A stretch of DNA of 64,000 nucleotides from Anaerolineales bacterium (GCA_050014715.1 JBEKCT010000002.1:1331-65330), one strand, 5' to 3'. Positions 5,513-38,082 are shown, numbered from the stretch's first letter. The notes: generated from the letters alone by a model not told the origin. Numbers and translations: made by a program.

Positions 5513-6523
5513 ATGAATTCTAGGAAAACATTCTACAGACGACCCAAACGAGAAGACGTGGCCCGGCTTGCCGGCGTTTCCTCGGCAACAGTTTCGTACG
5601 TGCTGAACAACAGCCCAAAACCTGTTACCGAAGAGACTCGCAAAAAGGTCCTGTTAGCGGTTCAACAGCTTGGCTACAAGCCTCATGCTTTTGCGCGCGG
5701 CCTGAAAACTGGCAATACCTGTACGATCGGGTTAGTCATACCGGTAGTCGCCAGTTCGGGCATGGCCTATCTGGCCAGCATCGTGCAGGACGAATTATTG
5801 CTCCATGGCTACCAGGTAATTATGGCGAATGCCCATGAAGACCCGGAGCGAGAGAAGGACTTACTTGAAGTGCTTAGTGCTCAGCCAGTCGATGGGATGA
5901 TTGTCTCTCCGGCTTCCCTGTATGAAACCCGCCGGTTTGATCAGATCATAGATTTTGGCATCCCATTGGTCTTTATGGACCGGTACGCGCAAGGCGTCAA
6001 TGCCGATCGCGTTACCACGGATAATATCAGCGCAACCCGCTACGCGACCAATTACCTGATTGGCCAGGGCTGTCAAAAGATCCTAATTCTCTCTTTTAGC
6101 ATGGTTGCTTCTTCCGCACTGGAGCGCCTGGATGGTTTCCGACAGGCCATGTCGATGCAAGGGATTCCCGTCGAGACTAACCAAATCCTGGTCATCCGTG
6201 ATCCGAATGGGGATTCGATTGAGAGAACTGTCCTAGAGCATATCGGCCATCACGGGTTTCCGGATGGCGTACTTTGCACAACGCAAGAACTTGGTATCAA
6301 TTTTGTCCGCGCCCTTCAGCACCAGGGGATTCCCATCCCCAATAAGAAGGTCGTTATTTTCGATGCCGATTGGGCAGAGTTGCTAAGCCCCCCGATTCCG
6401 GTCATCAAGCAAAACCTTCACTCTATGGCTTCAACGGCTGTGCGGCTGCTTATTGACCGCCTTAATGGAAGCGCGTACCCGCCTCAGGTCATTCTCTGCG
6501 AGGCGGAAAAGATTCATTATTAA
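5513..6523 (+). CDS. LacI-family transcriptional regulator
   Basis: 336 aa. It has the N-terminal HTH REDVARLAGVSSATVSYVLNN plus a periplasmic-binding-protein-like sugar-sensor domain of typical length. Confidence 0.9.
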   Translation: MNSRKTFYRRPKREDVARLAGVSSATVSYVLNNSPKPVTEETRKKVLLAVQQLGYKPHAFARGLKTGNTCTIGLVIPVVASSGMAYLASIVQDELLLHGYQVIMANAHEDPEREKDLLEVLSAQPVDGMIVSPASLYETRRFDQIIDFGIPLVFMDRYAQGVNADRVTTDNISATRYATNYLIGQGCQKILILSFSMVASSALERLDGFRQAMSMQGIPVETNQILVIRDPNGDSIERTVLEHIGHHGFPDGVLCTTQELGINFVRALQHQGIPIPNKKVVIFDADWAELLSPPIPVIKQNLHSMASTAVRLLIDRLNGSAYPPQVILCEAEKIHY

Positions 6524-6703: not shown

Positions 6704-7897
6704 ATGCAAATATCCCCCGAAAAACTAGCTCGAGCTCAAAGTGCGATGCTGGAAAATGGTCTGGATGCCCTTTTCTGCCGGCTGTCGGAGAACGTCTTAT
6801 ATTTTACCGGCTACTGGCCGCACGGCCACGTTGGCGCTGCGGTCCTGCCGGCCAACGGGAACCCGGTCCTGCTCATCGGGAAGCTGGAAGCCCAATTGGA
6901 ATTCAGCACATTTCCGCCATCGAGTCAGGTGGATGTAGTCACCTTCCCTTATGAGTCGAGTGAAGTAATGCGCGGGCCAAACGATGTTCTGGAAAAAGCC
7001 CTACCTGCGGTTTTCCAGAAGCTTGGGTTGAAAGGCAAGATCATCGGCATCGAACAAAGTTTTGAGGGGTGTAACGTAGGGGTGTTCCAGGGTGAGGTTA
7101 AGTACCCTAGCCTGCCGACCTGGGAAATGTTAAAGAACACTTTCCCCCACAATGAGTTTCGGGATGCAACTTCCCTCATCCTCAAATTACGACAGATCAA
7201 GAGTCCTGAAGAAGTGGATGCAATCCGGTTGGCAATCGAGACAGCTGCATTTGGGTTGCAGGCAGCGCGCGAAGCTGTCCACCCCGGGATGAAAGAAACC
7301 GAGCTGGCAATGGTAGTGGAAAGCGCCATCCATACCCGTGGGACGGGTTACAAGGATATCGCCCAGGCACGCGGCTATGCCGCGGTCAACGCCGGGGAGC
7401 ATTCTGCGATGCAGTGGGCGCATTATGCGAGCTCAAGTGAGCGGGTCATCCACAACAGCGATATGGTGATCATCGAGTTAGGCAGCTTTGCCGATGGCTA
7501 CTGGGCCGATCTGACCCGCAATATTGCTGTGGGAAAGGTCGACCCGAAGTTTTACGACCTGTACCAGGCTCTATGCGAGACCCAGCAGGCTGTTTATAAA
7601 ATTGCCAAGCCGGGCACCCCACTCTGTGATCTAGTGCGTGCTGCACGTGCGACCCTTGAAAAATATGGCTTCGCCGAGTATTGGCCACATGGTTTGGGCC
7701 ATGGCGTTGGATTTGCTTATCATGAAGGCCCCCCTATCCATATTGCCAATCCACAACCGATTGAGGCTGGTATGGTCCTGACTATTGAGCCTGGACTATA
7801 TATCCCGGGCCTGGGCGGTGTGCGTCCCGAGGACATGATCCTGGTGCATGAAGACCATGTCGAGGTGCTCTCAGACAGCATCCCCCGTGTACTCTGA
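6704..7897 (+). CDS. M24-family metallohydrolase (Xaa-Pro peptidase/creatinase fold)
   Basis: 397 aa, with AAGGAGG 6 nt upstream. Motifs seen are HGLGHGVGFAYHEGP, LTIEPGLYIPG and VRPEDMILV. A creatinase-like N-domain is present. Confidence 0.85.
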   Translation: MQISPEKLARAQSAMLENGLDALFCRLSENVLYFTGYWPHGHVGAAVLPANGNPVLLIGKLEAQLEFSTFPPSSQVDVVTFPYESSEVMRGPNDVLEKALPAVFQKLGLKGKIIGIEQSFEGCNVGVFQGEVKYPSLPTWEMLKNTFPHNEFRDATSLILKLRQIKSPEEVDAIRLAIETAAFGLQAAREAVHPGMKETELAMVVESAIHTRGTGYKDIAQARGYAAVNAGEHSAMQWAHYASSSERVIHNSDMVIIELGSFADGYWADLTRNIAVGKVDPKFYDLYQALCETQQAVYKIAKPGTPLCDLVRAARATLEKYGFAEYWPHGLGHGVGFAYHEGPPIHIANPQPIEAGMVLTIEPGLYIPGLGGVRPEDMILVHEDHVEVLSDSIPRVL

Positions 7898-7902
7898 CAA
7901 CT

Positions 7903-7925
7903 CCCCCGCTCTTAGGGGGCGGGGG
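7903..7925. terminator. GC hairpin between convergent genes (possible bidirectional terminator)
   Basis: CCCCCGC (7903-7909) pairs with GCGGGGG (7919-7925). The hairpin lies between the stop of the plus-strand M24 gene and the stop of the minus-strand ADH. The flanking T-run is weak. Confidence 0.35.
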
Positions 7926-7995
7926 TTCTGGCGATCCAACATGTTCCCATTAGTTGCATGGCGGGGCTCCCACGCCGCAAAGAATGGGAATATTT

Positions 7996-9021
7996 TCATT
8001 TGTGCAAAGGATTTCTTGGGTTAAAAGCGCCCACGAAGATCACTTTGCCGCATTGCCCTTCGCGAAAAACTCGGAAGGCTTCCTCGGCATCCGCATAGGT
8101 AAACCGGTGAGTGATCACCTGTTGGACTGGCAGCCCGGTACGGATCAGGCCAATCATCTCATCAAATTCAGCAGTATTAAAGTTGCGACTGCCATAGATG
8201 GTGGCTTCATTTTTTATCAGCTGTTCCCAGGGGTTAAGGGTCAGCTGGTGACTTACCCCCACCACGGCTAGTGTCCCCCGCCGTTTGAGGCTCGCCAAGG
8301 CTTGCTGGCAAACCGCCTCATTCCCTACGCAATCGAAGCCGACATCGATCCCTCGCCCGTTGGTCCAGTCTTTGATGACTTCGCTAACGTCCGCCTCGGC
8401 CGGATTGATGATCAGATCCGGGCCAAACTTACCGGCCATCTCACGGCGGTAAGAGCTCGTATCTATAGAAGCCACCTTGACGCCAAAGCGCTTGGCAGAC
8501 ATCAGTGCTCCCAACCCGATTGGCCCGGCACCCCAGATCGCGATCTTCTGCCCGGGTGTCAGGCGTGCGCGTTTGATTGCCCGGAAGGGAGTCCCCAGCA
8601 TATCCACCATTAAAGATGCCTGCTCGAAAGTGATTTCATCTGGGATGGGCATACAACTGGCCTCAGGAACGAGCATATACTCCCCAAACCCGCCGTCGTA
8701 ATCAAAGCCAATAACGGTGAGCTGGTCACAAAAGTAGAGGTCCCCATTCAAGCAGTACTCACAGTGCCCGCAGGTCACATGGCAGTTGATTGCTACCCGA
8801 TCACCAGGTTTGAGGTGGACCGGCTGATCGACCGCGGTCACGACCCCGGCACTCTCGTGCCCGGGTACGGTCTTCTGACCGGCCCCCATCAGGTTCTCCC
8901 GGTCGGTCCCGCAGATCGTTGCCGAACGAGTCTGGACGACCACCCAGCGATCGTGAGGTTGCGGTATGGATATCTCATCGATCGAAATTTTCCCCTGACC
9001 CAAGAAATGTACGCCAAGCAT
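7996..9021 (-). CDS. Zn-dependent alcohol/polyol dehydrogenase (MDR family)
   Basis: 341 aa. It has GHESAGVV, the structural-Zn motif CGHCEYCLNG, a GAGPIGLG Rossmann motif, and GGAGG 5 nt upstream of the ATG. Confidence 0.85.
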   Translation of the reverse strand: MLGVHFLGQGKISIDEISIPQPHDRWVVVQTRSATICGTDRENLMGAGQKTVPGHESAGVVTAVDQPVHLKPGDRVAINCHVTCGHCEYCLNGDLYFCDQLTVIGFDYDGGFGEYMLVPEASCMPIPDEITFEQASLMVDMLGTPFRAIKRARLTPGQKIAIWGAGPIGLGALMSAKRFGVKVASIDTSSYRREMAGKFGPDLIINPAEADVSEVIKDWTNGRGIDVGFDCVGNEAVCQQALASLKRRGTLAVVGVSHQLTLNPWEQLIKNEATIYGSRNFNTAEFDEMIGLIRTGLPVQQVITHRFTYADAEEAFRVFREGQCGKVIFVGAFNPRNPLHK

Positions 9022-9035
9022 TTTTCCTCCCGATC

Positions 9036-9800
9036 CTATGTATCCATGAACTCTCCGCCGGAGACAACCATCCCTTCTCCGGTTATATGCGATGCCAATG
9101 GCGAGGCCAGGAAGACAGCGGCGTTGGCCTGGTCGCGCGGATCAGCCATTTTCCCCAAAGGAGTCTTTGCAACCAATTCCTCAATGAGCCCTGGGACGTC
9201 TTTGATGAGCCCCCGCAGCATGTCGGTATCCGTAGCCCCCGGCAGGATTGCGTTGACCCGGATCCCATATTTGCCAAGCTCCAATGCAGCCACCCGCGTT
9301 ATCCCAATGATTGCGGATTTCGAGGAACAGTAGGCTGCTCCTTGCGGGTCTGGCTTTTTCCCGGATGCCGAAGACATATTGATGATTGACCCGCCTCGTT
9401 CCTGTTCGATCATTTGGCGGGCAACCGCTTGGATCATGAGGAAGCTACCACGCACGTTGACACGATAGACTAGATCCCAATCTTCGACCGGGAAATCGAC
9501 GATAAAATGCGGGCGGTGGATTCCCGCGTTATTGACCAGGATATCAATCCCACCGAAGGCAGCTGCCACTTCAGCGACGGTCTGCTGGATACTCTGCGGG
9601 TCACTTACGTCCAACATAAAGGCCTTGGCTTCGGGGTATCCTGCCCGGTTGATCCCCTCGGCGACAGCCTGTGCCTCGTAGAACAGCTTATCAGCCACGG
9701 CTAACCGTGCCCCTTGCTCAGCGTAGACCTCTGCAATGGCCCGACCAATGCCGCGTGCGGCGCCTGTTACCAAGGCCGTCTTTCCATCTAATAGCCCCAT
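9036..9800 (-). CDS. SDR-family oxidoreductase
   Basis: 254 aa. It has the TGAARGIGRAIA cofactor motif, NNAG, and the catalytic YCSSKSA. Confidence 0.9.
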   Translation of the reverse strand: MGLLDGKTALVTGAARGIGRAIAEVYAEQGARLAVADKLFYEAQAVAEGINRAGYPEAKAFMLDVSDPQSIQQTVAEVAAAFGGIDILVNNAGIHRPHFIVDFPVEDWDLVYRVNVRGSFLMIQAVARQMIEQERGGSIINMSSASGKKPDPQGAAYCSSKSAIIGITRVAALELGKYGIRVNAILPGATDTDMLRGLIKDVPGLIEELVAKTPLGKMADPRDQANAAVFLASPLASHITGEGMVVSGGEFMDT

Positions 9801-9831
9801 ATGGGTACCCTCCCTTTCTGAAAAGATTTAA

Positions 9832-11043
9832 CTATGCCAATTCCGCGACACGGGTTGCCAGAGTCTGCAAGAAGCGGGCGGCGGGGGCGCCATCCACCAA
9901 CCGGTGATCGATGGTCAGGCTGAGCGTCATTATCGGACACTGGACGATCTTTCCATCCTGAATGACCGGCCTCTCGGCGATCCGCCCAACTCCCAGAATC
10001 CCCACTTCTGGTGGGTTAAGTATAGGTGTAAAACCATCGATTCCAAAAATGCCCAGGTTCGTAATCGTGAAGGTCGAGCCGGAAAGGTCATCTGGCTGGC
10101 TTTTGCCCACCAGCGCCCGCTTTGTCAGGATGCCGAGTTCCTGGTGGATATCGATGATGGATTTTTGATCGGCGTCTCGCACGACCACAACCACCAAACC
10201 CGCCTCGGTATCCACTGCCAACCCGACGTGAACCTCCGGAAGCAGACGGATGGTCTGACCCTCCTGGCGAGCGTTCAAGCGCGGATGTTCGTGAAGCGCC
10301 CGAGCGACCAGTGAGATCAAAATTGCATTGTAGCTGGGCACGGGAGAAGATTCCCGCTGGGCATCGGCTTTTATCCGCTCGCGAGAGTTAACCAATCCAG
10401 AAGCATCGACTTCAGAGTGCAAGGTGAGCTGGGCAGTGGATTGCACAGAGAGGGTCATCCGTTCGGCGATGACTGCCCGAACCCCATTGATAGGCAGCGC
10501 TTGTTGTTGGAGCACAGCCGCCGGTTTCACCCTGGCAGGGGTAGAGGCGGACTGACGTCCGGCGATAGCCCGCTCGATGTCCTCTTGCCCGATGCGCCCG
10601 TCCGGACCACTGCTCTGGATGGACGCCAGATCGATGCCGTGTTCGGCCGCCAAGCGCTTGGCAAGAGGCGAAGCAAGGACCTTTCCCGGGCGAGCCATGG
10701 CTACTGTTGGCTGGGTGGGCGCTGCAGGCGCGCTGGCCTGTACGCTCGGAACGGAGGCACCGGTTGGCGCAGGGATTTCTTCCCTTACCAAACTGGCCTT
10801 CTCGCCTTCAGCTAAAATCATTGCTACAACTGTTCGCACCGGGACAGTTGCACCGGCTTCGACCAGGATCTTACCTAAAACACCATCCGCCTGGGCGGTC
10901 GATTCTGTTGTGACCTTATCGGTCTCGACAATAAAAAGTGACTCTCCACGTTTGACCGGGTCGCCCTCCTTCTTCAACCACTCAACGAGCAAACCCTCGC
11001 TCATGTTCAGTCCCAATTTAGGCATTACCACATAGGTTGGCAT
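9832..11043 (-). CDS. acoC: dihydrolipoamide acyltransferase (E2) of an acetoin/2-oxoacid dehydrogenase-type complex
   Basis: 403 aa. It has one lipoyl domain (VETDKVT), a peripheral-subunit-binding stretch (ASPLAKRLAAEHGIDL), and a catalytic domain ending in DHRLVDGA. Confidence 0.88.
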   Translation of the reverse strand: MPTYVVMPKLGLNMSEGLLVEWLKKEGDPVKRGESLFIVETDKVTTESTAQADGVLGKILVEAGATVPVRTVVAMILAEGEKASLVREEIPAPTGASVPSVQASAPAAPTQPTVAMARPGKVLASPLAKRLAAEHGIDLASIQSSGPDGRIGQEDIERAIAGRQSASTPARVKPAAVLQQQALPINGVRAVIAERMTLSVQSTAQLTLHSEVDASGLVNSRERIKADAQRESSPVPSYNAILISLVARALHEHPRLNARQEGQTIRLLPEVHVGLAVDTEAGLVVVVVRDADQKSIIDIHQELGILTKRALVGKSQPDDLSGSTFTITNLGIFGIDGFTPILNPPEVGILGVGRIAERPVIQDGKIVQCPIMTLSLTIDHRLVDGAPAARFLQTLATRVAELA

Positions 11044-11070
11044 GTAGGCATCTCTTTCTGAATCATATGA

Positions 11071-12084
11071 TTATGTCTTAAAAATAAATCGCTGGTCGCG
11101 AACAGCTTTCTCCAACACCCGGTCTACGTCAACAATCCATGGACCATCCATCCGCAAGCAGATAGCGGCATCTTCACCCGGTTTTACTTGAAGCTCGCGC
11201 TCCCCATCCAAAGCCAGCATCAATGGGCGCTCCGCGGTTAGTGGGTACAGCTGGTCAGGCTTCAGAACGTTTATCTCGCGCAGGGCAAGCCTGGCAAACA
11301 GACCAGGTCCAATAGGCGCCATGATAGTCATAACGCTTCCATCTTGGCCGATATTGGCGATCGCTCCGTAGGGATCGCGTGTCGAGATCGGACGGACCAT
11401 GCCGACGATGGTGGAAAGGCCGATCGTGGCAGGTGAGGCGCGTGTGACAGCCACCTGACGGATCTGCTCCGACTCCCAGACCGCCCGCGACCCGATAAAT
11501 GTGCTGGCGACTGCGGCGACATCCACCAGGGCATCGTCGACCGTCCGCCCGTCAATCTGGACCTCAAGCCGCTTGCTGCGAAAGCAGAGCTCCTGCTTTC
11601 CGGCTTCATTCTCTTGGGCAATTATCCCAGCGGCCAGTCCGGCAATCGTCCCCTCCACAAACTGCGGGAGCACATTATTCGTTCCGGTTGAGACGGGCAG
11701 GAGCGGAACATGGTAGGTTTCTTTCGCTGCCAGACGTGCAGTTCCATCACCGCCTATGGTGATGATGCAGCCAGCACCCATCTCGCGCAACATGCGGGCC
11801 GCGCGGATCGTGTCGATGCCAGCGCCGATGAAATCCATGTCCAGGATGCTCACCCCGGCAACCACTTCAGGGCTGCCGCGCCTGAGATCGTCGATCGCCT
11901 GCAGGCCAATCCCAAACTTATCAGGCATGACACGCACATCGCTGACCCCTGCTTCACTCAGGCCGAGTAGCATCCGGCGGACAATATTGGCTTTTTCGCG
12001 GTTCCCTATGAAGAAGGCATGCGCCACAAGTCGGCGGATATCTTTCCCGGAAGCCGGGTTGGCAATAATCCCTACCATTGTCAT
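11071..12084 (-). CDS. acoX: ATP-NAD kinase-like protein (AcoX-type)
   Basis: 337 aa. It has the GIIANPASGKD N-terminus and a GGDGT diacylglycerol/NAD-kinase motif. It is inserted between E1beta and E2, as in acoX-containing acetoin operons. Confidence 0.72.
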   Translation of the reverse strand: MTMVGIIANPASGKDIRRLVAHAFFIGNREKANIVRRMLLGLSEAGVSDVRVMPDKFGIGLQAIDDLRRGSPEVVAGVSILDMDFIGAGIDTIRAARMLREMGAGCIITIGGDGTARLAAKETYHVPLLPVSTGTNNVLPQFVEGTIAGLAAGIIAQENEAGKQELCFRSKRLEVQIDGRTVDDALVDVAAVASTFIGSRAVWESEQIRQVAVTRASPATIGLSTIVGMVRPISTRDPYGAIANIGQDGSVMTIMAPIGPGLFARLALREINVLKPDQLYPLTAERPLMLALDGERELQVKPGEDAAICLRMDGPWIVDVDRVLEKAVRDQRFIFKT

Positions 12085-12161
12085 CGTAAGTTCGCAATTC
12101 TAAACAGAACGGGGTTAGCCACAGCCCTCCTAGCTAACCCTGGCCACATCTACTTGCAGGT

Positions 12162-13148
12162 TCAGGCGGGAACACGCTTCAACACACGGTTCACTGCGGC
12201 GACAATATCAGATTCTTTGGGCAACACGAACTCCTCGAGCACGGGGCTGAAAGGCACCGGGACGTCCTTGGCGGTTACGCGCACGATTGGCCCATCCAGG
12301 TAATCCATTGCCTCTTCGGCCACCAGGGCAGATACTTCACTGGAGATAGAGCAGTCGCGCCAGGTCTCCTGCACTACCACCAGGTGTCCGGTTTTCTTAA
12401 CCGATTCGAGCACCATTTCGCGGTCCAGTGGATCGACGGTGCGCAGGTCGACTACTTCACAGTCGATACCCTGCTTGGCCAGCTGCTCGGCGGCTGCCAG
12501 GCTCTTGTGGACCATTAAGGAATAGGTGACGATAGTTACATCCGAACCTTTACGCTTGATATCAGCTTTCCCGATCGGAATGGTATAGTCTTCTTCGGGA
12601 ACGTCACCTTTCATGGCATACAGTTTTTTGTGTTCGAAGAATAGCACAGTGTTGTTATCCCGGATTGCACTCTTTAACAGGCCCTTGGCATCGTATGGAG
12701 TGGCGGGCATGATCACTTTGATTCCGGGGACGAAGGAGAATATTGATTCAAAACTATTGGAGTGCTGTGCTCCGGCACTCAGATATCCGCCGACCGGGGC
12801 GCGTATCACCAACGGCATCTCGAGCACGCCACCGAACATATAGCGCATTTTTGCAGCCTGGTTGATGATCATTTCGCTCGCCAGTGTAATCCAATCTGAA
12901 AACTGCAGTTCGATTACCGGGCGGATGCCGGTTGCCGCTGCGCCGACGCCCATCCCAACGTAGCCAAGTTCGGAAACGGGCATATCGATCACCCGCTCAC
13001 GACCAAACTGCTCATACAGACCTTTCGTGCAGGCATTGGCCCCCCCATATGGGCCGATATCAATCCCCCATAGGATGACGTTTGCATCCCGACGCATTTC
13101 TTCGGCTAAGGCTTCGGCTATGGCCTGGTTGTAGAATAGCTGTCTCAT
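12162..13148 (-). CDS. acoB: E1 beta subunit, acetoin/2-oxoacid dehydrogenase type
   Basis: 328 aa. It has the pyrimidine-binding plus transketolase-C fold pattern (DTPISE-like PVSELG, HSNSFE, FFEHKKLY). It lies directly downstream of E1alpha. Confidence 0.9.
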   Translation of the reverse strand: MRQLFYNQAIAEALAEEMRRDANVILWGIDIGPYGGANACTKGLYEQFGRERVIDMPVSELGYVGMGVGAAATGIRPVIELQFSDWITLASEMIINQAAKMRYMFGGVLEMPLVIRAPVGGYLSAGAQHSNSFESIFSFVPGIKVIMPATPYDAKGLLKSAIRDNNTVLFFEHKKLYAMKGDVPEEDYTIPIGKADIKRKGSDVTIVTYSLMVHKSLAAAEQLAKQGIDCEVVDLRTVDPLDREMVLESVKKTGHLVVVQETWRDCSISSEVSALVAEEAMDYLDGPIVRVTAKDVPVPFSPVLEEFVLPKESDIVAAVNRVLKRVPA

Positions 13149-13169
13149 CGGTTTTCTCCTCTCACCCGG

Positions 13170-14129
13170 CTAGGCCCACAGGTCCGCCAAGGCGGTTTCT
13201 GGTTCAGGGAATGGGCTCTGGCGAGCGAATTCAACGGCTTCGTCCAGTTCGGTGATGACCTGTTTTTCGATGACCTGGGCATCTGCTTCGGTAATCACAC
13301 CCTGGTCAATCAGGAGCTGGCGATAAGGAGCGATCGGCTCGCGTTTCAGCCAGGCGGCCACTTCCTCGGGCGGGCGATAGGTATCAGGCTCGCCCTCAAA
13401 ATGGGTTCGCCAGCGATATGTCTTGCATTCAATCAATGTCGGGCCTTCCCCGGCCCTGGCACGTTGCACCGCTACTTTGGTAGTTTCATATACAGCTATA
13501 ACATCGTTGCCATCCACCACCACGCCGGGCATTCCATAGCTGGCCGCACGATCGGCGATATCCTCGATCTTGCGAACCTCGCTCTGGCGGGTGCCGACGG
13601 CGTACAGGTTGTTCTCACACACATATACGACGGGCAGGTTGAATGCTCCGGCGATGTTTAGCGATTCATGAAAGGTGCCCTCATTCGAGGCTCCATCACC
13701 GAAGAAACAGGCCACCACCTGGCCGCTCTTGCGCAACTTGGCGGACATGGCCGCCCCGGTCGCGATCGGGATACCGGCGCTCACGATCCCATTCGCCCCC
13801 AGGATGCCGAGCTTTGGCCAGGCGATGTGCATCGAACCACCTTTGCCTTTGTTATAGCCGGTGGACTTGGCAAATAACTCAGCCATCATGCGGCGCATCT
13901 CGCCGCCCTTGGCGATAATGTGCCCATGACCGCGGTGAGTACTGGTGATGTAATCATCGTCATTCAGGTTGACGCACACCCCGACTGCCACCGCCTCTTC
14001 CCCCAGATACAGATGAACAAACCCGGGTAATTCGCCCGCAGCGAACAGGTCTTTCACCCGGTCCTCAAAGTGGCGAATTTTGAGCATTCGCTCATACATC
14101 ATCAACAGTTTTTCTTTTGGGATATCCAT
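13170..14129 (-). CDS. acoA: E1 alpha subunit (TPP-dependent), acetoin/2-oxoacid dehydrogenase type
   Basis: 319 aa. It has STHRGHGH and the TPP motif GDGASNEG-...-CENN (GDG-x26-NN). Confidence 0.9.
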   Translation of the reverse strand: MDIPKEKLLMMYERMLKIRHFEDRVKDLFAAGELPGFVHLYLGEEAVAVGVCVNLNDDDYITSTHRGHGHIIAKGGEMRRMMAELFAKSTGYNKGKGGSMHIAWPKLGILGANGIVSAGIPIATGAAMSAKLRKSGQVVACFFGDGASNEGTFHESLNIAGAFNLPVVYVCENNLYAVGTRQSEVRKIEDIADRAASYGMPGVVVDGNDVIAVYETTKVAVQRARAGEGPTLIECKTYRWRTHFEGEPDTYRPPEEVAAWLKREPIAPYRQLLIDQGVITEADAQVIEKQVITELDEAVEFARQSPFPEPETALADLWA

Positions 14130-14153
14130 ACAATCCTCCGTCAGATAGGTTGG

Positions 14154-14960
14154 TTAGCAGCGCATCAGGCTCAGGGCTTCTGCCGCTGCCTGCTCAGATG
14201 CAACAGTTGGGGCAAACTCCAGCCCTATATACTTCTCATAGCCGGCTTCCTTGAGCGCTTTGAATACGTTCGCGTAATTAATTTCTCCTGTCCCGGGCTG
14301 ATGGCGTCCAGGGACATCAGCTACATGGATGTGGCCGATGACATCCAGATTATGGGTCAAGGAGGTGATCAAATTCCCTTCCATCACCTGCATGTGATAA
14401 ATATCGTACAATAGACGGATGTTGGGGCTGTCCACCGCACGAATCAGGTCAAAACCGAGCGCTGAGCCGTGCAGATAGTAACCAGGATGGTCCACATAGA
14501 TGTTGAGCGGTTCGAGCACCAGGGTTACCCCGGCTTTTTCCGCCAATGGGGCAATCGTTTTCAGCCCGGCCAGCACGTTTTCGTATTTCTCTTCTGCGGA
14601 AAGCTGTGGGTACTGATAACGGACCGAGCGGTCATCGCCCAGCTCGTCGGTGAGCAGGAACAGGGTATGGACGCCCATCTCCCTAGCCTTCTCCAGCGAT
14701 TTCTGGATGCCTGCAACGAATTCTGTGCGGTGCTCTGGATGGATCAGGGTGCCACCCAGGTTCGATTGGAAAGTCGCGATCTTGATCCCGGCCCTCTGGG
14801 TAGTTTCTTTGACGGTCGGCATATCCTTGTTGTCCCAGTTCCAGAACTCGATCGCGTCAAAACCTTGTTGGGCCGCCTTCTGGATGCGTTCAAGGAACGG
14901 ATATTCAGTATAGATCATTTCAATACATACGGATGTTTTCATACTCCTTCTATTGTCCAT
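14154..14960 (-). CDS. hydroxypyruvate-isomerase-like TIM-barrel protein (xylose isomerase-like fold)
   Basis: 268 aa. The N-terminus CIEMIYTEYPFLERIQKAAQQGFDAIEFW and the HIHVAD..GRHQPG motif are typical of the Hyi/sugar-phosphate isomerase-epimerase family. Confidence 0.8.
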   Translation of the reverse strand: MDNRRSMKTSVCIEMIYTEYPFLERIQKAAQQGFDAIEFWNWDNKDMPTVKETTQRAGIKIATFQSNLGGTLIHPEHRTEFVAGIQKSLEKAREMGVHTLFLLTDELGDDRSVRYQYPQLSAEEKYENVLAGLKTIAPLAEKAGVTLVLEPLNIYVDHPGYYLHGSALGFDLIRAVDSPNIRLLYDIYHMQVMEGNLITSLTHNLDVIGHIHVADVPGRHQPGTGEINYANVFKALKEAGYEKYIGLEFAPTVASEQAAAEALSLMRC

Positions 14961-15036
14961 CGGTAAAATACCTCTTCTTTCGGCATGTGAGCTGAACTTC
15001 TTATTGAACGGTTTTTCTAACCATCATCCTTTCATT

Positions 15037-16110
15037 CTATGATTTTGGGGTTTTTGCCCCCATCTTTAATAGATCGATCAAGAACGCGATATCGCGGCGG
15101 CCTTTTTCGCCATTCGTAATCGGCTCTTCGCCATTAACAATGCAGCCATAAAAATGACGCCATTCGCGCTTGAATGCTTCATCGTAAGAGACCAGCACCT
15201 GTTTTGTCACGCAGGTTTCCCCCTCCATTTCGTTCATTGTGATTTGGGTATTCGCGTTCTTTAAGTAAGGGAAGGGAAATTTGACTTCAATCATCCGGTT
15301 GCTGCCATAGGCAGTAATGCTCTCATCCCATTCGGTGCGATCCGGAATTAATCCAGTTTCCCAGATACAGCGGGTGTGCGGACCATAATTCAGGACGGCG
15401 ACCACAAAGGTATCAAACAGTTCCACATGCTGGATTTTGTCTGCCAGACCGAAGGCCTCATGCAGAACAATCGCATCATGGGAGCAGTTGTACATCAGCA
15501 GGCTGAAAGTCTCGTACAGGTCAGCATTCTCTTTCCCGATGGCCTTGAGCATTGCTTCGTATTCGTGTTCCCGTGATTTCTGGATTTCAACCGCAGGGAT
15601 ATCGTCCCCTACAAATAAATCGTAAATCTTATTGTTAATGGTATAGGTTCCCCCAAAGTCATGCACCCGGATGAGACGCAGATTCTGGATGTCCTTGAAT
15701 TTTCTGAGGGCCCATTCGTAAGCTGGGTCATATCGCTTCATATAAGCCACCATCAATTTAACGTTATTTGCGTGCGCGGCTGCAATCATCTGGTCACATT
15801 CTTTCAGGTTGAAAGCCATCGGCTTTTCCGTAATCACATGTTTGCCGGCGTTCATCGCGGCGACAGCAACGGGCGCATGGTCTTTATTGCAAATGCAAAC
15901 GACATCCAGTTCCGGGAGATTAACCAAGTCCAGGTAGTTCGTAAAACAATGCCTAATTCCATACTTACCGGCTACCGCTTCAGCCACCTTTTTGGAGATA
16001 TCGCACACAGCGACGAGTTCAAGGTTTGGTAGTTCCAGAATGTAGGGGATGTGCGCGATTTGCGCAATTTGACCACATCCGACGACGCCAACTTTCAATG
16101 TCTTTTCCAT
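15037..16110 (-). CDS. Gfo/Idh/MocA-family oxidoreductase
   Basis: 357 aa. It has the LKVGVVGCGQIAQIAH Rossmann N-terminus, an EKP motif (ITEKPMA), and a C-terminal alpha/beta domain of typical length. Confidence 0.85.
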   Translation of the reverse strand: MEKTLKVGVVGCGQIAQIAHIPYILELPNLELVAVCDISKKVAEAVAGKYGIRHCFTNYLDLVNLPELDVVCICNKDHAPVAVAAMNAGKHVITEKPMAFNLKECDQMIAAAHANNVKLMVAYMKRYDPAYEWALRKFKDIQNLRLIRVHDFGGTYTINNKIYDLFVGDDIPAVEIQKSREHEYEAMLKAIGKENADLYETFSLLMYNCSHDAIVLHEAFGLADKIQHVELFDTFVVAVLNYGPHTRCIWETGLIPDRTEWDESITAYGSNRMIEVKFPFPYLKNANTQITMNEMEGETCVTKQVLVSYDEAFKREWRHFYGCIVNGEEPITNGEKGRRDIAFLIDLLKMGAKTPKS

Positions 16111-16125
16111 AAAGCTCTTCCTCGT

Positions 16126-16544
16126 TTAAAAATTTAGACCGTGAGACTTGAAAACTACCCCAGATACCAAAATGACGTTTGCATAAGGGGTAAATTCCCC
16201 AGTACGGATCACCGCTTTCGCTCTCGCAGAAAGCCCTTTGAGCTCATCATGGATGATTTCAATCATCTCCACTCCGGGGAAAAACTCTTTGAGCTTTGTT
16301 CCAATCTCGGGGCTGCTGGCAAATGTCTCGCGAGCGACCAGGATTTGCTGTACCTTAAGTTCTTCCGCGATGGTCTGAACGGTTTGCAGGAAGCCAGGCA
16401 CCCCTGGACAAAGGGCGAAATCGATCCGTTGCACACCTGCTGGAATAGGCCGGCCTGCATCGGCGATTACCAGCGCTTATCCAAGTGCCCCATGCCGGCA
16501 ACCACGTTAGAGATATCTTGATTGAGGATACCCATTTTTTTCAT
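16126..16544 (-). pseudogene. rbsD: D-ribose pyranase (RbsD/FucU family) with a 1-nt frameshift after codon ~23
   Basis: AGGAG SD precedes ATG at 16544. The ORF reads MKKMGILNQDISNVVAGMGHLDKRW* and stops at 16469-16467. Shifting one base continues as ALVIADAGRPIPAGVQRIDFALCPGVPGFLQTV...TGEFTPYANVILVSGVVF, collinear with RbsD end to end. Confidence 0.75.
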
Positions 16545-16647
16545 CGAAATCTCCTGCAGTATTTGATAAATGGTCCCGATGGGTTTACCAAATTCGATAT
16601 GCTGTTAACCGAAAATGTTCGTTTGTGTGAGGGTTATTAATTCGAGG

Positions 16648-16797
16648 CTACCGAGAAATGTGGTCAGGCGAGGAAAGGTCAAGCGGATTGAGGATCACAT
16701 GGGAAACGGTGGTTATCGAGACACCCGCAGATTCGGCAACATCCCGAATAGTCACATTGGTATCCAGAGTATCTCGCGAGAATACCTTGGCAGACAT
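16648..16797 (-). pseudogene. LacI-family HTH-only remnant (49 codons)
   Basis: The translation is MSAKVFSRDTLDTNVTIRDVAESAGVSITTVSHVILNPLDLSSPDHISR*. It has the canonical LacI DNA-binding helix-turn-helix, but no effector domain follows in any frame. Confidence 0.55.
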
Positions 16798-16898
16798 GGT
16801 TCAATCGATTTATTTAGAAGTTCTGCGTATAGAAAGCGTTTGCGCAATGGTTTAATTGATTTTAGCATCACTGATTGATGAAGTCAATAAGAATTAAG

Positions 16899-16927
16899 TT
16901 GACACGAGTAAATTTGTTTGCTATAAT
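16899..16927 (+). promoter_or_regulatory. consensus sigma70-type promoter (TTGACA-17-TATAAT) for block B
   Basis: TTGACA at 16899-16904, a 17-nt spacer, and TATAAT at 16922-16927. The motif ACACGAGTAAATT overlaps the -35 box (16902-16914). The first gene starts at 17001. Confidence 0.6.
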
Positions 16928-17000
16928 ATTCTTAATAACCAACTTGTTCCTTCGTAATTAATTATCCCTTCTCTGTTACGCAATTGCGTGCTGGTACCCG

Positions 17001-18047
17001 ATGAAAACACTTGTCTGGTATGGAGCATTGGATGTGCGGTTGGAAGAGCGCCCGCTTCCCCGGCCTGGCTTGGGTGAATTATTGGTCCGTATCAAAGCTC
17101 TCGGGATATGCGGATCCGATTTGAAGCTTTACAAGTACGGGATCTTGGGTACTTTACAGCCAACCCATCCGTTCATTATGGGTCATGAAGGTGCTGGGCA
17201 GGTGGCACAGGTTGGTGACAGCGTAGAAGGATTTGAGGTGGGTGATCCGGTGATCATCAATCCACAGAGTGTCTGTGAGGATTGCTTTTACTGCCGGAAG
17301 GGCGAGCAAAATCTATGCGAGCGATTGAATTTCAAGAGTGTGACGACAGATGGGGTCTATTCAGAATTCGTCCTGGTTCGGGCAATCCAAGCCATCCACC
17401 TTCCACCCGGTTTTGATTTTGGGCTGGCTACGACAATCGAGCCAGTATCGGTGGCCGTCCAGGCACTGCGTTCCACCAAAATCTCTCCCTCTGATTCGGT
17501 CCTGATATTGGGTGCCGGGTCGATTGGTCTGGCGATTCTGGGCATCCTAGGCTCTATGGGTATCAGCCGGGTAGCGACGGTCGATCCACAGGAATTTGCT
17601 CTTGAGCGTGCCCGACAGGCAGGAGCTGCCTTGACCATCAATACCCAAAAAGCGGATTTAACCGGGGAAATAAGCAAGTTCTTCGGGTCGCGGGGGCCGG
17701 ATGTGGTGGTCGAGGCATCTGGATCCAGTGCAGCCCAGTCATTGGCCTTTGAGTACGCCCGGCCAGGCGGCGCGATCATCCTGGTCGGGATCTCAGCAGA
17801 GGCAAGCACAAATGTGAATATAAACCGCCTAGTACGTTCCAACCTTCGTGTTTTTGGATCGGTGCGCACGAGCGGCGATGCTTTTCCGGCCGCTGCCCGG
17901 CTGGTGACCTCGGGGCAGGTTGACACGCGAGGGTGGATCAGTCAGGTCTTTCCCTTTGAGAAAGCTCCGCAAGCGTTTGCATACACGATTGACCCAAATC
18001 ATCGGGTGACGAAGTGCTTGCTGGAATTCCAAGATCCGGGCAATTAA
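17001..18047 (+). CDS. Zn-dependent alcohol/polyol dehydrogenase (MDR family)
   Basis: 348 aa. It has GICGSDL, GHEGAGQV, the structural-Zn motif CEDCFYCRKG, and GAGSIGLA. Confidence 0.85.
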   Translation: MKTLVWYGALDVRLEERPLPRPGLGELLVRIKALGICGSDLKLYKYGILGTLQPTHPFIMGHEGAGQVAQVGDSVEGFEVGDPVIINPQSVCEDCFYCRKGEQNLCERLNFKSVTTDGVYSEFVLVRAIQAIHLPPGFDFGLATTIEPVSVAVQALRSTKISPSDSVLILGAGSIGLAILGILGSMGISRVATVDPQEFALERARQAGAALTINTQKADLTGEISKFFGSRGPDVVVEASGSSAAQSLAFEYARPGGAIILVGISAEASTNVNINRLVRSNLRVFGSVRTSGDAFPAAARLVTSGQVDTRGWISQVFPFEKAPQAFAYTIDPNHRVTKCLLEFQDPGN

Positions 18048-32578: not shown

Positions 32579-33565
32579 ATGGCCGTTCTCCAGAGAGAAG
32601 ACATGCCCCGATTAATTCCCACTGATGAGCTGCGACTTCTCAGCAAAGTGAGCAAGTTCTATTACGATGAGGGTATGACTCAGGATGAGATAGTTGAGAA
32701 GCTGCTGCTCTCACGCTCAAAAATCTCACGGTTGTTAAAACAGGCTAGGGAGGCGGGCATCGTTAAGATTACGGTCATCCCTCCACCGGGAGTCTTTCCC
32801 GATCTGGAAATGCAGTTGGAGAGTCGTTTCCACCTAAGGGATGTGATTGTGGTAGAGGCTCGCCAGCCAGATTCGCAGGCAGCTGTTGCGCGCGAACTGG
32901 GAATTGCCGCTGGCAGCTATTTGCACCGCACAGTCAGGGAAAGGGATGTAATTGGGATTACGTGGGGCTCGACCCTGCATTTGATGGTGGACACCATGCA
33001 ACCCAGCTCGATGCCGACCGTCCAGGTGATCCAGATCCTCGGCGGATTGGGCAGGCCCGAATCGGAGGTCCATGCCACTGATCTGTGCCGCCGGCTGTCA
33101 CGTTTGTTGAACTGCAAGCTGACCCTCCTGCCGGCACCAGGGATTGTAGATAACCAGCAGGTCAAAGAGGTCTTCCTCTCGGACAGCCACGTCCAAGGGG
33201 CAATGAGCTTTTTCCGAAAATTGACGATAGCTATCGTGGGGATCGGCTCGCCAACACCGGATTCAGCGGTGATGCGGGATGGATCAATTATTAATAAGGT
33301 TGAACTAAATGATTTATTGAAGCGAGGTGCAGTTGGAGATATTGCCTTGCGTTTCTTTGACTCGTTCGGCCAACCGGTACTATCAGATGTCAATGACCGG
33401 GTGATAGGGATCACCATGGAGCAGCTTTCAAAAGTAGAGCGGGTGGTGGGGGTAGCCGGCGGCCCGCATAAATTTACTGTTATACAGGCCGCCTTACGGG
33501 GCAGATTGATCAATACACTAATTACCGATCATGCAACCGCTCGCAGGCTGCTCGAATCGGATTAA
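32579..33565 (+). CDS. SorC/DeoR(B. subtilis-type)-family sugar-binding transcriptional regulator
   Basis: 328 aa. It has the N-terminal HTH LLSKVSKFYYDEGMTQDEIVEKLLLSRSKISRLLKQAREAGIV and a C-terminal sugar-phosphate-binding (SorC) domain. Confidence 0.88.
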   Translation: MAVLQREDMPRLIPTDELRLLSKVSKFYYDEGMTQDEIVEKLLLSRSKISRLLKQAREAGIVKITVIPPPGVFPDLEMQLESRFHLRDVIVVEARQPDSQAAVARELGIAAGSYLHRTVRERDVIGITWGSTLHLMVDTMQPSSMPTVQVIQILGGLGRPESEVHATDLCRRLSRLLNCKLTLLPAPGIVDNQQVKEVFLSDSHVQGAMSFFRKLTIAIVGIGSPTPDSAVMRDGSIINKVELNDLLKRGAVGDIALRFFDSFGQPVLSDVNDRVIGITMEQLSKVERVVGVAGGPHKFTVIQAALRGRLINTLITDHATARRLLESD

Positions 33566-33595
33566 GGTACACCCATAACAATCAGGAGCCTTTCA

Positions 33596-34204
33596 TTGGT
33601 ACCGGATGAAATTTTGCAGCTCGCTTCGACAGTGATCAGGCAGGAAAGCGCTGGGATTGCAACACTCTGCGACCAGCTGGACCAGTCTTTCGTTGAGGCT
33701 GCCTACAAACTGTTCAATTGTAAAGGGCATGTGTTGGTGACCGGCTCAGGTACATCGCATGCGGTCGGTGCTCGCTTGGCCCATCTGTTGTCGTGCTGCG
33801 GCACCCCGGCACTGTTTATCCACCCAGGAGACAGTCAGCACGGCTTGGCCGGAGCGGTGCTGGGAGATGACGTGCTGATTGCGCTCTCCAAGGGCGGTGA
33901 GACGGTTGAGGTCAACTACCTGGCCAGCTACGCCAAAAAAATTGGCGCATCCCTGATCGGCCTGACCGAAAAACCCGCCTCAACTTTGGGCAAGATGTGT
34001 GACGTGGTGTTAAAGGTCCAGGCTCCGGCTGACATTGACCCTTATGGCATGATTGCCACCGGTAGTTCCCTGGTAAATGCAGCTCTCGGCGACGCTCTAT
34101 GTGTGGTATTGCTTAAATTGCGCGGTTATACCCGCGAAGACTTTGGCAGGACCCATCCAGGTGGGGCGGTAGGCATCAAACTGTCCCAAGAGCCGGGCAA
34201 GTAA
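33596..34204 (+). CDS. SIS-domain sugar-phosphate isomerase (KpsF/GutQ-like, no CBS pair)
   Basis: 202 aa, TTG start behind AGGAG. The segment VLVTGSGTSHAVGARLAHLLSCCGTPALFIHPGD..HG and ALSKGGET match the SIS fold of arabinose-5-P isomerase-type proteins. Confidence 0.8.
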   Translation: MVPDEILQLASTVIRQESAGIATLCDQLDQSFVEAAYKLFNCKGHVLVTGSGTSHAVGARLAHLLSCCGTPALFIHPGDSQHGLAGAVLGDDVLIALSKGGETVEVNYLASYAKKIGASLIGLTEKPASTLGKMCDVVLKVQAPADIDPYGMIATGSSLVNAALGDALCVVLLKLRGYTREDFGRTHPGGAVGIKLSQEPGK

Positions 34205-34213
34205 GGGAGCGGC

Positions 34214-35272
34214 ATGAAAGCAGCGTTTTTGATCGGCGCCAGCCAATTTGAAGTTCGCGATGTTCCAGCTCCGAATCTTCCACCCGACGGTATTTTGTTA
34301 AAGGTGGTGACCTGCGGGATATGCGGCTCGGATCTGCGGCGCTGGAAGGAAGGTCCCTACCCTGGCAGTGACCGGCTGGTCCCCGGGCACGAGGCAGCCG
34401 GTATCATCGAGGCGGTAGGCGCTGAAGTGAAAGACTTTCGGCTTGGCGAGCGCCTGGCGATTGCCCCGGATGTTCACTGCGGCACCTGCTACTACTGCCA
34501 ACGCGGCCTATACAACCTATGCGATGACCTGCGCTTTTTAGGAATCACTCCAAACTATTCGGGCGGCTTCGCCGAAAAAATGGTATTAACCGGCCAAGTG
34601 CTTGAAAATGGTATTGTACACCGCATGCTGGAGGGTATGAGCTTTCCCCAGGCTTCTTTTGCCGAGCCGTGCAGCTCGGTGCTGGCCTCCCACGACAAAG
34701 CCGGGACCAGTCTGAGGGATACCGTGCTGGTGATGGGCGCCGGTCCGATTGGCTGCCTGCATATCGTGATAGCAAAGGCGCGCGGGGCGCGGGTGATACT
34801 GTCCGAGCCCAGCGAAATCCGCCGCAACCTGGCACAGCGGTTTGGACCCGATCTGGTGATCGATCCATCCAGTGAATCTGTGGTCGAGCGCGTCCGCCAA
34901 TTCACCGGCGGGTTGGGTGCCGATATTGCCATTTGCGCCAACCCGATAGCAGCTACCCAGGCCGAGGCGGTCGAGGCGGTCCGCAAAGCGGGCAGGGTCA
35001 TTCTTTTCGGCGGCCTGCCGAAGGCAGATCAATTGACATCAATGAACGGCAACCTGATCCATTACGGTGAAATCACGGTGATCGGGGCTTTCTCTTATCA
35101 CCCAACCTATCACCAACAGGCCATCGAGGCGATCGGCCGCGGTTTGATCCCGGTAGATCACTTTATCACACACACATTTGCATTGGAACATATAAACGAA
35201 GCCTTCTATGCTGCTGCTGGTGGGCAGGCTTTGAAGGTAATGATAGAAATACAACAAAAAACTAAAGTCTGA
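34214..35272 (+). CDS. Zn-dependent polyol dehydrogenase (MDR family, sorbitol/iditol-DH-like)
   Basis: 352 aa. It has [16 protein letters not shown], the structural-Zn motif [10 protein letters not shown], and GAGPIGCL. Confidence 0.85.
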
Positions 35273-35278
35273 GAACCG

Positions 35279-36625: not shown

Positions 36626-36669
36626 GAAGTCTGATCGATTCTGTTAACCTAATGAGAGGAGCGCAAACC

Positions 36670-38079: not shown

Positions 38080-38082
38080 TTC

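Follow-up and report, generated by a model that had tools for sequence, protein, structure and literature searches.

An acetoin-dehydrogenase-type operon with sugar-type partner genes in an Anaerolineales bacterium, a candidate for the cleavage of sugar-derived hydroxyketones

To our knowledge, acetoin dehydrogenase is the only well-studied machine of the pyruvate dehydrogenase (PDH) type that acts by cleavage of a hydroxyketone and not by decarboxylation of a 2-oxoacid. In Clostridium magnum the genes of this complex reportedly follow the order acoA-acoB-acoX-acoC-acoL. The present work deals with a related operon located at positions 7996-16544, on the minus strand, of a 64,000-nucleotide stretch of the genome of an Anaerolineales bacterium (GCA_050014715.1, JBEKCT010000002.1:1331-65330), hereafter called the window. 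The operon encodes both subunits of a thiamine diphosphate (ThDP)-dependent E1, a lipoyl E2 and an AcoX-like protein. AcoX was needed for acetoin dehydrogenase activity when the genes of Pseudomonas putida were transferred to Escherichia coli (PMC10943186); a report cited in that paper ascribes to AcoX no NAD, acetoin or pyruvate kinase activity, and its function is stated as unknown (PMC10107126).

The operon is interpreted here as one transcription unit for an acetoin-dehydrogenase-type (AcoA/AcoB/AcoX/AcoC lineage) ThDP/lipoyl complex for C-C bond cleavage, which a clade of the Anaerolineae would have taken over for the lower half of a pathway for sugars or polyols, where it would cleave a sugar-derived hydroxyketone; we give this reading a probability of about 0.5. 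The E1 of the clade probably splits such a compound and not acetoin. The type of regulator, the synteny and a remodelled E1beta point, indirectly, to a sugar-derived acyloin as the substrate. The gene families (aco-type E1, E2 and AcoX, rbs genes, Gfo, Hyi, SDR and MDR) and the order E1alpha-E1beta-AcoX-E2 are already known; a literature search for the gene combination, its regulators, the E1beta changes or deoxy-sugar cleavage of the acetoin dehydrogenase type found no description.

Nine co-oriented minus-strand open reading frames were listed for the operon in the preliminary description made from the sequence; all of them are present, and each family call is backed by Pfam and NCBIfam. The intergenic gaps along the operon are 14, 31, 27, 77, 21, 24, 76 and 15 nt. 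The genes and the upstream elements are the following:

7996-9021, minus strand: Zn-dependent alcohol dehydrogenase (Zn-ADH) of the medium-chain dehydrogenase/reductase (MDR) family, threonine dehydrogenase/IolM-like (Pfam, NCBIfam).
9036-9800, minus strand: short-chain dehydrogenase/reductase, SDR (Pfam, NCBIfam).
9832-11043, minus strand: E2 composed of lipoyl (ETDKV), E3-binding and catalytic 2-oxoacid_dh (DHRLVDG) domains (Pfam, NCBIfam, motifs).
11071-12084, minus strand: AcoX-like protein of 337 aa with the NAD kinase/diacylglycerol (DAG) kinase fold and GGDGT at residues 111-115 (Pfam, structural model).
12162-13148, minus strand: E1beta with 15 clade-specific substitutions (Pfam, NCBIfam, alignment).
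13170-14129, minus strand: E1alpha, ThDP-binding, 319 aa, with the motif GDG...NN (Pfam, NCBIfam, motif).
14154-14960, minus strand: Hyi/OtnI-like TIM barrel of the xylose isomerase fold, a predicted ketol isomerase or epimerase (Pfam, NCBIfam).
15037-16110, minus strand: NAD(P) oxidoreductase of the Gfo/Idh/MocA family (Pfam, NCBIfam).
16126-16544, minus strand: pseudogene of rbsD, D-ribose pyranase (Pfam, NCBIfam, frame reading).
16648-16797, minus strand: remnant of a LacI/RbsR-type repressor, 49 codons, helix-turn-helix only (homology to LacI of related loci L001 and L002).
16859-16887, minus strand: promoter-like site preceding the LacI stub, TTGACT-17-TAAAAT, which also has an extended TG (consensus match only).
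16899-16927, plus strand: divergent consensus promoter for the neighbouring gene block B, facing the preceding site (consensus match).

The E1 is of the alpha2beta2 type with separate subunit genes (E1_dh, 305 bits; both Transket_pyr and Transketolase_C found; GDG...NN seen). The E2 is of the Firmicute/anaerobe type with a true 2-oxoacid_dh domain and is not an alpha/beta-hydrolase AcoC. Alignment of E1alpha with the solved E1alpha of PDH and branched-chain 2-oxoacid dehydrogenase (BCKDH) starts at residues 31-42 of the latter; accordingly, it lacks their N-terminal extension.

These properties bear on the alternative that the operon encodes a 2-oxoacid dehydrogenase complex for a 2-oxoacid derived from a sugar acid, e.g., 2-keto-3-deoxy-pentonate, or an oxo-tetronate supplied by the Gfo protein and the OtnI-like isomerase, with acyl-CoA (CoA, coenzyme A) and CO2 as the products. 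Such a substrate would fit the score of E1beta, which passes the PDH E1beta 'subfamily' model (395.6 vs a cut-off of 321), the PDH and BCKDH E1 as the nearest solved structures, 2-oxo-tetronate isomerase as the second-best family of the TIM barrel, and the residue Gln82 of the clade, which is as in the PDH and BCKDH structures, while canonical AcoB has Met. However, the E1beta model is the only one of the PDH type that is passed, since E1alpha (368.8 vs 393.85) and E2 (275.4 vs 445) both remain under every NCBIfam equivalog cut-off for PDH and 2-oxoglutarate dehydrogenase. The missing N-terminal extension of E1alpha, the tie to AcoX, a hallmark of aco clusters, and the AcoX-linked E1alpha tree considered below, which is not rejected, also argue against it, and no lactonase or sugar-acid dehydratase was found in any locus examined. 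We regard a 2-oxoacid substrate as quite unlikely.

The assembly (3.69 Mb, 270 contigs) contains seven full E1alpha genes, six E2 genes, one AcoX-like gene, one rbsD and one close Hyi-like gene; four of the seven E1alpha genes fall within the window. The operon is the sole E1/E2 set of the genome with an AcoX-like gene, which supports its earlier designation as the best acetoin/diol-type candidate in the window. The single gene for dihydrolipoamide dehydrogenase (E3) in the genome (G000:C118:2450-3838; TIGR01350, 550 bits) lies outside the operon.

The AcoX assignment is upheld by 36-39% identity, over 96-99% of the length, to AcoX of classical acoXABC clusters. The matches come from alpha- and betaproteobacterial megaplasmids; one is annotated as 'acetoin catabolism protein X' (38%, full length), and those of Burkholderia sp. 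RPE67 and Paracoccus denitrificans lie in acoR-acoX-acoA-acoB-acoC clusters. The only Pfam match of the protein is the N-terminal domain NAD_kinase (PF01513, 49.5 bits), and the NCBIfam NAD kinase models give it only about 19 bits vs cut-offs above 300. Among 21 homologues, GGDGT hardly varies. A sequence search of the PDB with AcoX returned nothing but one spurious match, so a fold search was needed: with an AlphaFold (AF2) model (pLDDT 87, pTM 0.87), Foldseek placed NAD kinases on top (E 4e-11, TM about 0.5) and also found DAG and sphingosine kinases, all at 11-15% identity.

A scan for AcoX loci with a single AcoX protein as the query gave no match, and an alignment as the query did; the set of 84 loci comprises 80 from the alignment-based scan, with one genome per species, and four assembly contigs. 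The exact order E1alpha-E1beta-AcoX-E2 is the commonest layout, found in 37 of the 84 loci, and four more fit it but are truncated. The position of AcoX between E1beta and E2, noted earlier, is therefore no peculiarity of the operon but the norm for anaerobes, as it is shared by ordinary aco clusters with AcoR/sigma-54 regulation in Sporomusa and Anaerotignum. The AcoX homologue has neither an E1 nor an E2 gene next to it in 18 of the 84 loci, the majority of them from Chloroflexota and some of them on short contigs (examples are L013, L014, L019, L022, L023, L031, L036, L037, L044, L050 and L063); accordingly, the AcoX family may also have roles outside aco clusters.

The common gene order would suit an ordinary acetoin/2,3-butanediol operon, in which acetoin is converted to acetyl-CoA and acetaldehyde, the SDR and Zn-ADH are stereoisomer-specific butanediol dehydrogenases, the Hyi-like protein is possibly an acetoin racemase, and the rbs genes are merely co-located. 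Chemistry of the ketose 3-epimerase type would suit the racemisation of acetoin. However, the search within and next to the operon gave no AcoR-type sigma-54 activator, either in the window or for any relative; regulators of the LacI or SorC sugar types are present instead.

A clade of 12 E1alpha sequences, exclusively from Anaerolineae, is supported at 100% (SH-aLRT), and its stem measures 0.52 substitutions per site. Its members are the sequences of the window, L001, L002, L006/L085, L007/L086, L009, L010, L012, L080 and L087; a further locus, L090 of genome G263, obtained after the tree was built, encodes an E1alpha 80% identical to that of the window. The arrangement is not due to chance, since about a dozen loci, which represent about eight lineages of the Anaerolineae, contain the same genes. 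The Hyi-like gene is the most constant partner of E1, adjoining E1alpha in every member with upstream DNA available, except L010. Genes for the SDR and Zn-ADH are present in the clusters of the clade in shuffled positions. The eight genes of the window operon downstream of rbsD are 69-87% identical to their counterparts in L001, the contig of the closest relative.

The recurrence of the upstream sugar-type genes in the relatives' loci agrees with the initial view that they belong with the E1/E2 genes and are not accidental neighbours. The front end is LacI-rbsD-Gfo with a divergent CUT2 importer in L001, LacI-rbsK-rbsD-Gfo in L002, and LacI-rbsK-rbsD-SBP-ATPase-permease-Gfo in L087 (SBP, substrate-binding protein), where a CUT2 ABC importer is thus included in the operon. 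In Leptolinea (L085) it is rbsK-rbsD-ADH followed by a degenerate M24-like gene, and in L086 LacI-rbsD-ADH followed by an M24-like gene. The front end of L090 consists of genes for a xylulokinase-like FGGY kinase, an MDR-ADH, an epimerase-type TIM barrel, a class II ketose-bisphosphate aldolase and a DRL-type oxidoreductase, and the core is then followed by its own E3 and LplA genes. The relatives' ribokinases score 342-365 bits vs the TIGR02152 equivalog cut-off of 299.65, and rbsD, rbsK and rbsR are all intact in L002, L085 and L087. A link to sugar genes that outlasts gene shuffling in about eight lineages, together with an ABC importer inside an operon, speaks against an ordinary acetoin/2,3-butanediol operon.

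A position was taken as clade-specific if at least 90% of the clade was fixed for one residue and at least 85% of the other AcoX-linked sequences for another. In E1beta there are 15 such positions in the Anaerolineae clade, vs 0, 0, 1, 0 and 1 in five other well-supported clades, and these 15 are fixed differently from 47-55 of the 55 other AcoX-linked E1beta. The E1alpha of the clade has 5 (0-3 in five other clades), E2 has 3 and AcoX has none. The E1beta changes are F38N, I63Y, M82Q, F86W, V89L, D92E, G122Y, A126G, Q131N, H139F and five others. In the alignment to E1beta of Geobacillus stearothermophilus (1W85_B), the catalytic residues Glu59 and His128 correspond to E60 and H129; Y63 lies three residues past E60, N131 two past H129, and Y122 and G126 in the loop before H129, while W86 corresponds to Phe85, which we take to pack against the pyrimidine ring of ThDP. 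Positions 122, 139 and 82 vary in the non-AcoX paralogues of the genome and are fixed in canonical AcoB. The pattern is that expected of specificity determinants and would thus be consistent with a changed substrate; the 15 changes near catalytic residues, vs 0-1 in other clades, speak against an ordinary acetoin operon. That AcoX is unchanged while E1beta changes argues for a role of AcoX that is independent of the substrate.

E1alpha is 46-49% identical to proteobacterial AcoA, which does not exceed its identity to a paralogue in the window (49%). When all AcoX-linked E1alpha, those of the clade included, are constrained to one group apart from ten non-AcoX paralogues, the log-likelihood is 14 units above that of the free search, and the constrained tree is not rejected (p-AU 0.82). 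The data are therefore compatible with an origin of the E1 from the aco type, in a tree with an unresolved backbone.

The unresolved backbone is one of several points that weigh against cleavage of a sugar-derived hydroxyketone. The active-site motifs of E1alpha are nearly unchanged and its five clade-specific positions are mostly conservative, so that a small, acetoin-like substrate remains conceivable. The placement of the E1beta residues in the active site relies on the alignment to 1W85 and on the structural literature. The classical Paracoccus aco cluster likewise carries genes for an SDR and an MDR dehydrogenase after acoC. Ribokinase is the standard route for ribose, and how the rbs genes would feed E1 is unexplained. 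The module is also rare: among 400 genomes sampled across the class there is one Hyi orthologue of 71% identity, the next best match being 47%, and a match is absent from all 12 sampled genomes of the family to which the window belongs. A check of module carriers for a second, canonical AcoX set was uninformative on distinct functions, since 10 of the 11 have a single AcoX.

The little-changed E1alpha and the Paracoccus gene content favour an acetoin operon as well; the oxidoreductases of the window offer it less. The SDR shares 39% identity with its counterpart in the aco cluster of Paracoccus and passes only the cut-off of the 'glucose 1-dehydrogenase' subfamily (233.9 vs 215), and the Zn-ADH is 31% identical to an annotated 2,3-butanediol dehydrogenase. 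As neither reaches a cut-off for butanediol dehydrogenase or acetoin reductase, an assignment of the two proteins as butanediol dehydrogenase orthologues is not supported. A butanediol-dehydrogenase-like gene had also been suggested in block B; this was not supported, since the block B genes and the Zn-ADH of the operon are generic threonine dehydrogenase/IolM-like MDR proteins, 27-33% identical to an annotated 2,3-butanediol dehydrogenase, and none reaches a curated cut-off. Taken together, an ordinary acetoin/2,3-butanediol operon appears unlikely, though less so than a 2-oxoacid dehydrogenase.

The Gfo/Idh/MocA protein resembles characterized enzymes in its Rossmann domain only: its best PDB matches, in residues 1-140 only, are DgpA, glucose-fructose oxidoreductase and inositol dehydrogenases. 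The TIM barrel scores 185 bits as hydroxypyruvate isomerase (cut-off 353) and 166 bits as 2-oxo-tetronate isomerase (cut-off 325).

If the complex does cleave a sugar-derived hydroxyketone, the following route may be proposed from the gene content. A ribose-type importer, ribokinase and RbsD, which are present in relatives, would import the sugar under the control of a LacI/RbsR-type repressor. Secondary alcohols of the sugar or sugar alcohol would be oxidized to a ketone by the Gfo/Idh/MocA protein (or, in some relatives, by a second MDR-ADH), the SDR and the Zn-ADH, and the Hyi/OtnI-like barrel would shift or epimerise the ketol to an alpha-hydroxyketone accepted by E1. On E1, ThDP would add to the carbonyl and the adjacent C-C bond would be broken, freeing an aldehyde and charging the lipoyl arm of E2 with the acyl group, which E2 would pass to CoA; the lipoyl arm would be reoxidized by the single E3 encoded on contig C118. 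Alternatively, one dehydrogenase may serve to reduce the aldehyde formed, much as acetaldehyde is reduced by fermenters. AcoX would act as a general helper required for E1 activity and not as a substrate-specific enzyme.

The expected substrate would be a pentose-derived methyl or hydroxymethyl ketol, e.g., a 1-deoxypentulose or a pentulose. Ribokinases are encoded elsewhere in the genome, at 47100-48047 (plus strand) of the window and at G000:C128:1355-2245 (341 and 352 bits, both above the TIGR02152 cut-off), and, because ribose already has a ribokinase, a pentitol, pentulose or deoxypentulose is more likely than ribose. The first of the two ribokinase genes sits in the third E1/E2 cluster of the window. 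More tentatively, it is possible that the module of Hyi-like protein, E1alpha, E1beta, AcoX, E2, SDR and Zn-ADH is the C-C cleaving step of an undescribed lipoamide-dependent splitting of pentose ketols (e.g., 1-deoxypentulose or its phosphate, or pentulose) to acyl-CoA and a triose or glycolaldehyde, as an alternative to aldolase, transketolase and phosphoketolase, perhaps together with a SorC-SIS-ADH-DRL-FGGY block, with AcoX as a general activating factor of the E1 lineage.

Such a block is located at 32579-39606 (plus strand) of the window and contains genes for a SorC regulator, a SIS protein, an MDR-ADH, a DRL_cat/SAF oxidoreductase (DXR-II-like family), a fucose-isomerase-C-like protein and an FGGY kinase. 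Orthologous pieces adjoin the module elsewhere: SorC, SIS, ADH and DRL genes are divergent from it in L085; in L090 the FGGY kinase (68% identical to that of the block) and DRL (43%) genes are co-oriented upstream of it; and the SorC proteins of L002 and L007 are 50-55% identical to that of the block. Block and module may belong to a single pathway or regulon. The M24 peptidase gene at 6704-7897 (plus strand), convergent to the operon, was considered as a part of the module and rejected, since its product is 18-19% identical to the in-operon M24-like proteins and keeps all metal ligands. The degenerate M24-like proteins, without the HGxGH and Glu ligands, are encoded directly before the Hyi-like gene in L085 (5976-7076), L086 (5156-6208) and L090 (8841-9962).

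The head of the operon in the window is damaged. The break in rbsD, already noticed in the preliminary description, was located: the frame from the ATG at 16544, which is preceded by AGGAG, meets TAA after 25 codons, and RbsD homology resumes in another frame to 16126, the C-terminal 102 residues being encoded at 16126-16434. Alignment with the intact rbsD of L001 and L002 places two extra bases in GATAAGCGCTGG, near 16472-16478; their deletion would give back ...GHLD-TLVIADAG... with the usual RbsD spacing, and the lesion is therefore better called a +2 insertion than a one-base slip. The sequence context of the insertion contains no homopolymer. The intact RbsD orthologue of L002 scores 160 bits vs the NF008761 cut-off of 93, and no other rbsD is present in the genome of the window. 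The frameshift may be an assembly error. In L001, the genes for E1beta (8851-9836) and E2 (11036-12228) are each called as two genes, which is probably caused by frameshift errors of that assembly; thus, single frameshifts in contigs of such metagenome-assembled genomes need read support.

The LacI stub lies 100 nt before rbsD on the same strand, in the place of a 347-aa LacI in L001. Homology of the stub to LacI of L001 and L002 extends through ...VSITTVSHV and then ends, and DNA similarity to L001 restarts at rbsD. As similarity stops after the helix-turn-helix and resumes at rbsD, about 850 nt, encoding the sensor domain of LacI, have been deleted in the window. The head was therefore damaged twice, by the reduction of the repressor to a stub and by the frameshift in rbsD, and all eight genes that follow are intact. 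Another LacI of the RbsR-like kind, which is complete and has a helix-turn-helix different from that of the stub, is encoded at 5513-6523.

The same damage could mean that the operon is a decaying, non-working remnant in this genome, the broken rbsD and the deleted repressor being the first steps of its loss, and the absence of the module from the 12 sampled genomes of the same family would agree with this. However, the eight downstream genes are full length, have no stops, keep the catalytic motifs and retain the identity to L001 given above; a promoter-like site is kept; and loss of the repressor leads to constitutive expression and not to silence. Since the body of the repressor is lost, the eight intact genes are probably expressed without their original control. 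RbsD is dispensable, with two ribokinases elsewhere in the genome, and its loss is probably tolerable. We consider a decaying remnant very improbable, the least probable of the alternatives weighed here.

Promoter-like sites of the 16859-16887 type number 8 in the region vs 7.7 expected. The Rfam scan of 7500-17500 detected no RNA element and no riboswitch, and no palindrome with two or fewer mismatches was found in the search for a LacI operator upstream of the operon. The G+C content is 56-58% in the part from ADH to E1alpha (8001-14000) vs 49-50% in the Hyi-Gfo-rbsD part with the promoter region (14001-18000); this step may be a sign of mosaic origin.

Should the proposed reading be true, the hydroxyketone-cleaving E1/E2 chemistry also serves carbohydrate-derived molecules, in abundant and poorly studied anaerobes of sediments and digesters. 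It would also matter for annotation, as the genes of such operons are now named pyruvate dehydrogenase, NAD kinase and glucose dehydrogenase, and the clade lends itself to clean comparisons on the old problem of AcoX function.

Among described or recognizable aco clusters, those of Sporomusa rhizae (L039) and Anaerotignum propionicum (L077) have the same E1alpha-E1beta-AcoX-E2 order as the window and an E2 that also has the 2-oxoacid_dh domain; AcoX of the window is 41-44% and E1alpha 59-60% identical to theirs. Their layout presumably matches that of the C. magnum acoABXCL cluster. In both, the core is preceded by genes for an AcoR-type sigma-54 activator (GAF/PAS) and a member of the Lin0512 family, neither of which is present in the operon of the window. 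Downstream of the core there is an E3 gene with an N-terminal lipoyl domain in Anaerotignum and a radical-SAM gene with LplA in Sporomusa, and the window operon has neither. Instead, it has LacI, rbsD, Gfo and Hyi-like genes upstream, SDR and Zn-ADH genes downstream, and a remodelled E1beta.

The proteobacterial acoR-acoXABC clusters (Cupriavidus necator, Pseudomonas putida) are represented by plasmid p1 of Burkholderia sp. RPE67 (L088) and plasmid 1 of Paracoccus denitrificans (L089), to which AcoX of the window is 38% identical over the full length, E1alpha 46-49% and E1beta 49-50%. Unlike the window operon, these clusters have acoX as the first gene and are under sigma-54 regulation, and their E2 is of the lipoyl plus alpha/beta-hydrolase type, of which only the lipoyl domain aligns with the E2 of the window. 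The best solved relative of E1beta is the PDH E1 of G. stearothermophilus (PDB 1W85, 3DUF; E 1e-91); in contrast to the latter, the E1alpha of the window has a shorter N-terminus, does not reach the equivalog cut-offs for PDH and is linked to AcoX.

With the E. coli-type rbs operon (rbsDACBK-rbsR), the relatives' loci share a LacI/RbsR-type repressor, ribokinase, RbsD and parts of the CUT2 ABC importer at the head. Unlike in that operon, these genes are followed by those of an oxidoreductase, a ketol isomerase and the E1/E2 complex, without a known need in ribose catabolism. The window differs from both its relatives and the rbs operon in that only a broken, frameshifted rbsD and the repressor stub are left and rbsK is absent from the operon.

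Precedents for a sequence of oxidation, isomerisation and cleavage exist in the keto-glucoside module ycjS/ycjR/ycjQ of E. coli, with a Gfo/Idh/MocA 3-dehydrogenase, a PF01261 epimerase and a Zn-MDR dehydrogenase, and in iolG/iolE/iolD of inositol breakdown, with a Gfo-type dehydrogenase, a PF01261 dehydratase and a ThDP-dependent C-C hydrolase. Like the window, both combine a Gfo/Idh/MocA protein and a barrel of the xylose isomerase fold with a Zn-MDR or ThDP enzyme whose substrate is a keto-sugar. The similarity is low, with 67 bits between the TIM barrel and 3-keto-D-glucoside 4-epimerase (6wn6) and Gfo matches confined to the Rossmann part, and the ThDP step is assigned to a lipoyl E1/E2 complex in the window vs a hydrolase in the iol module.

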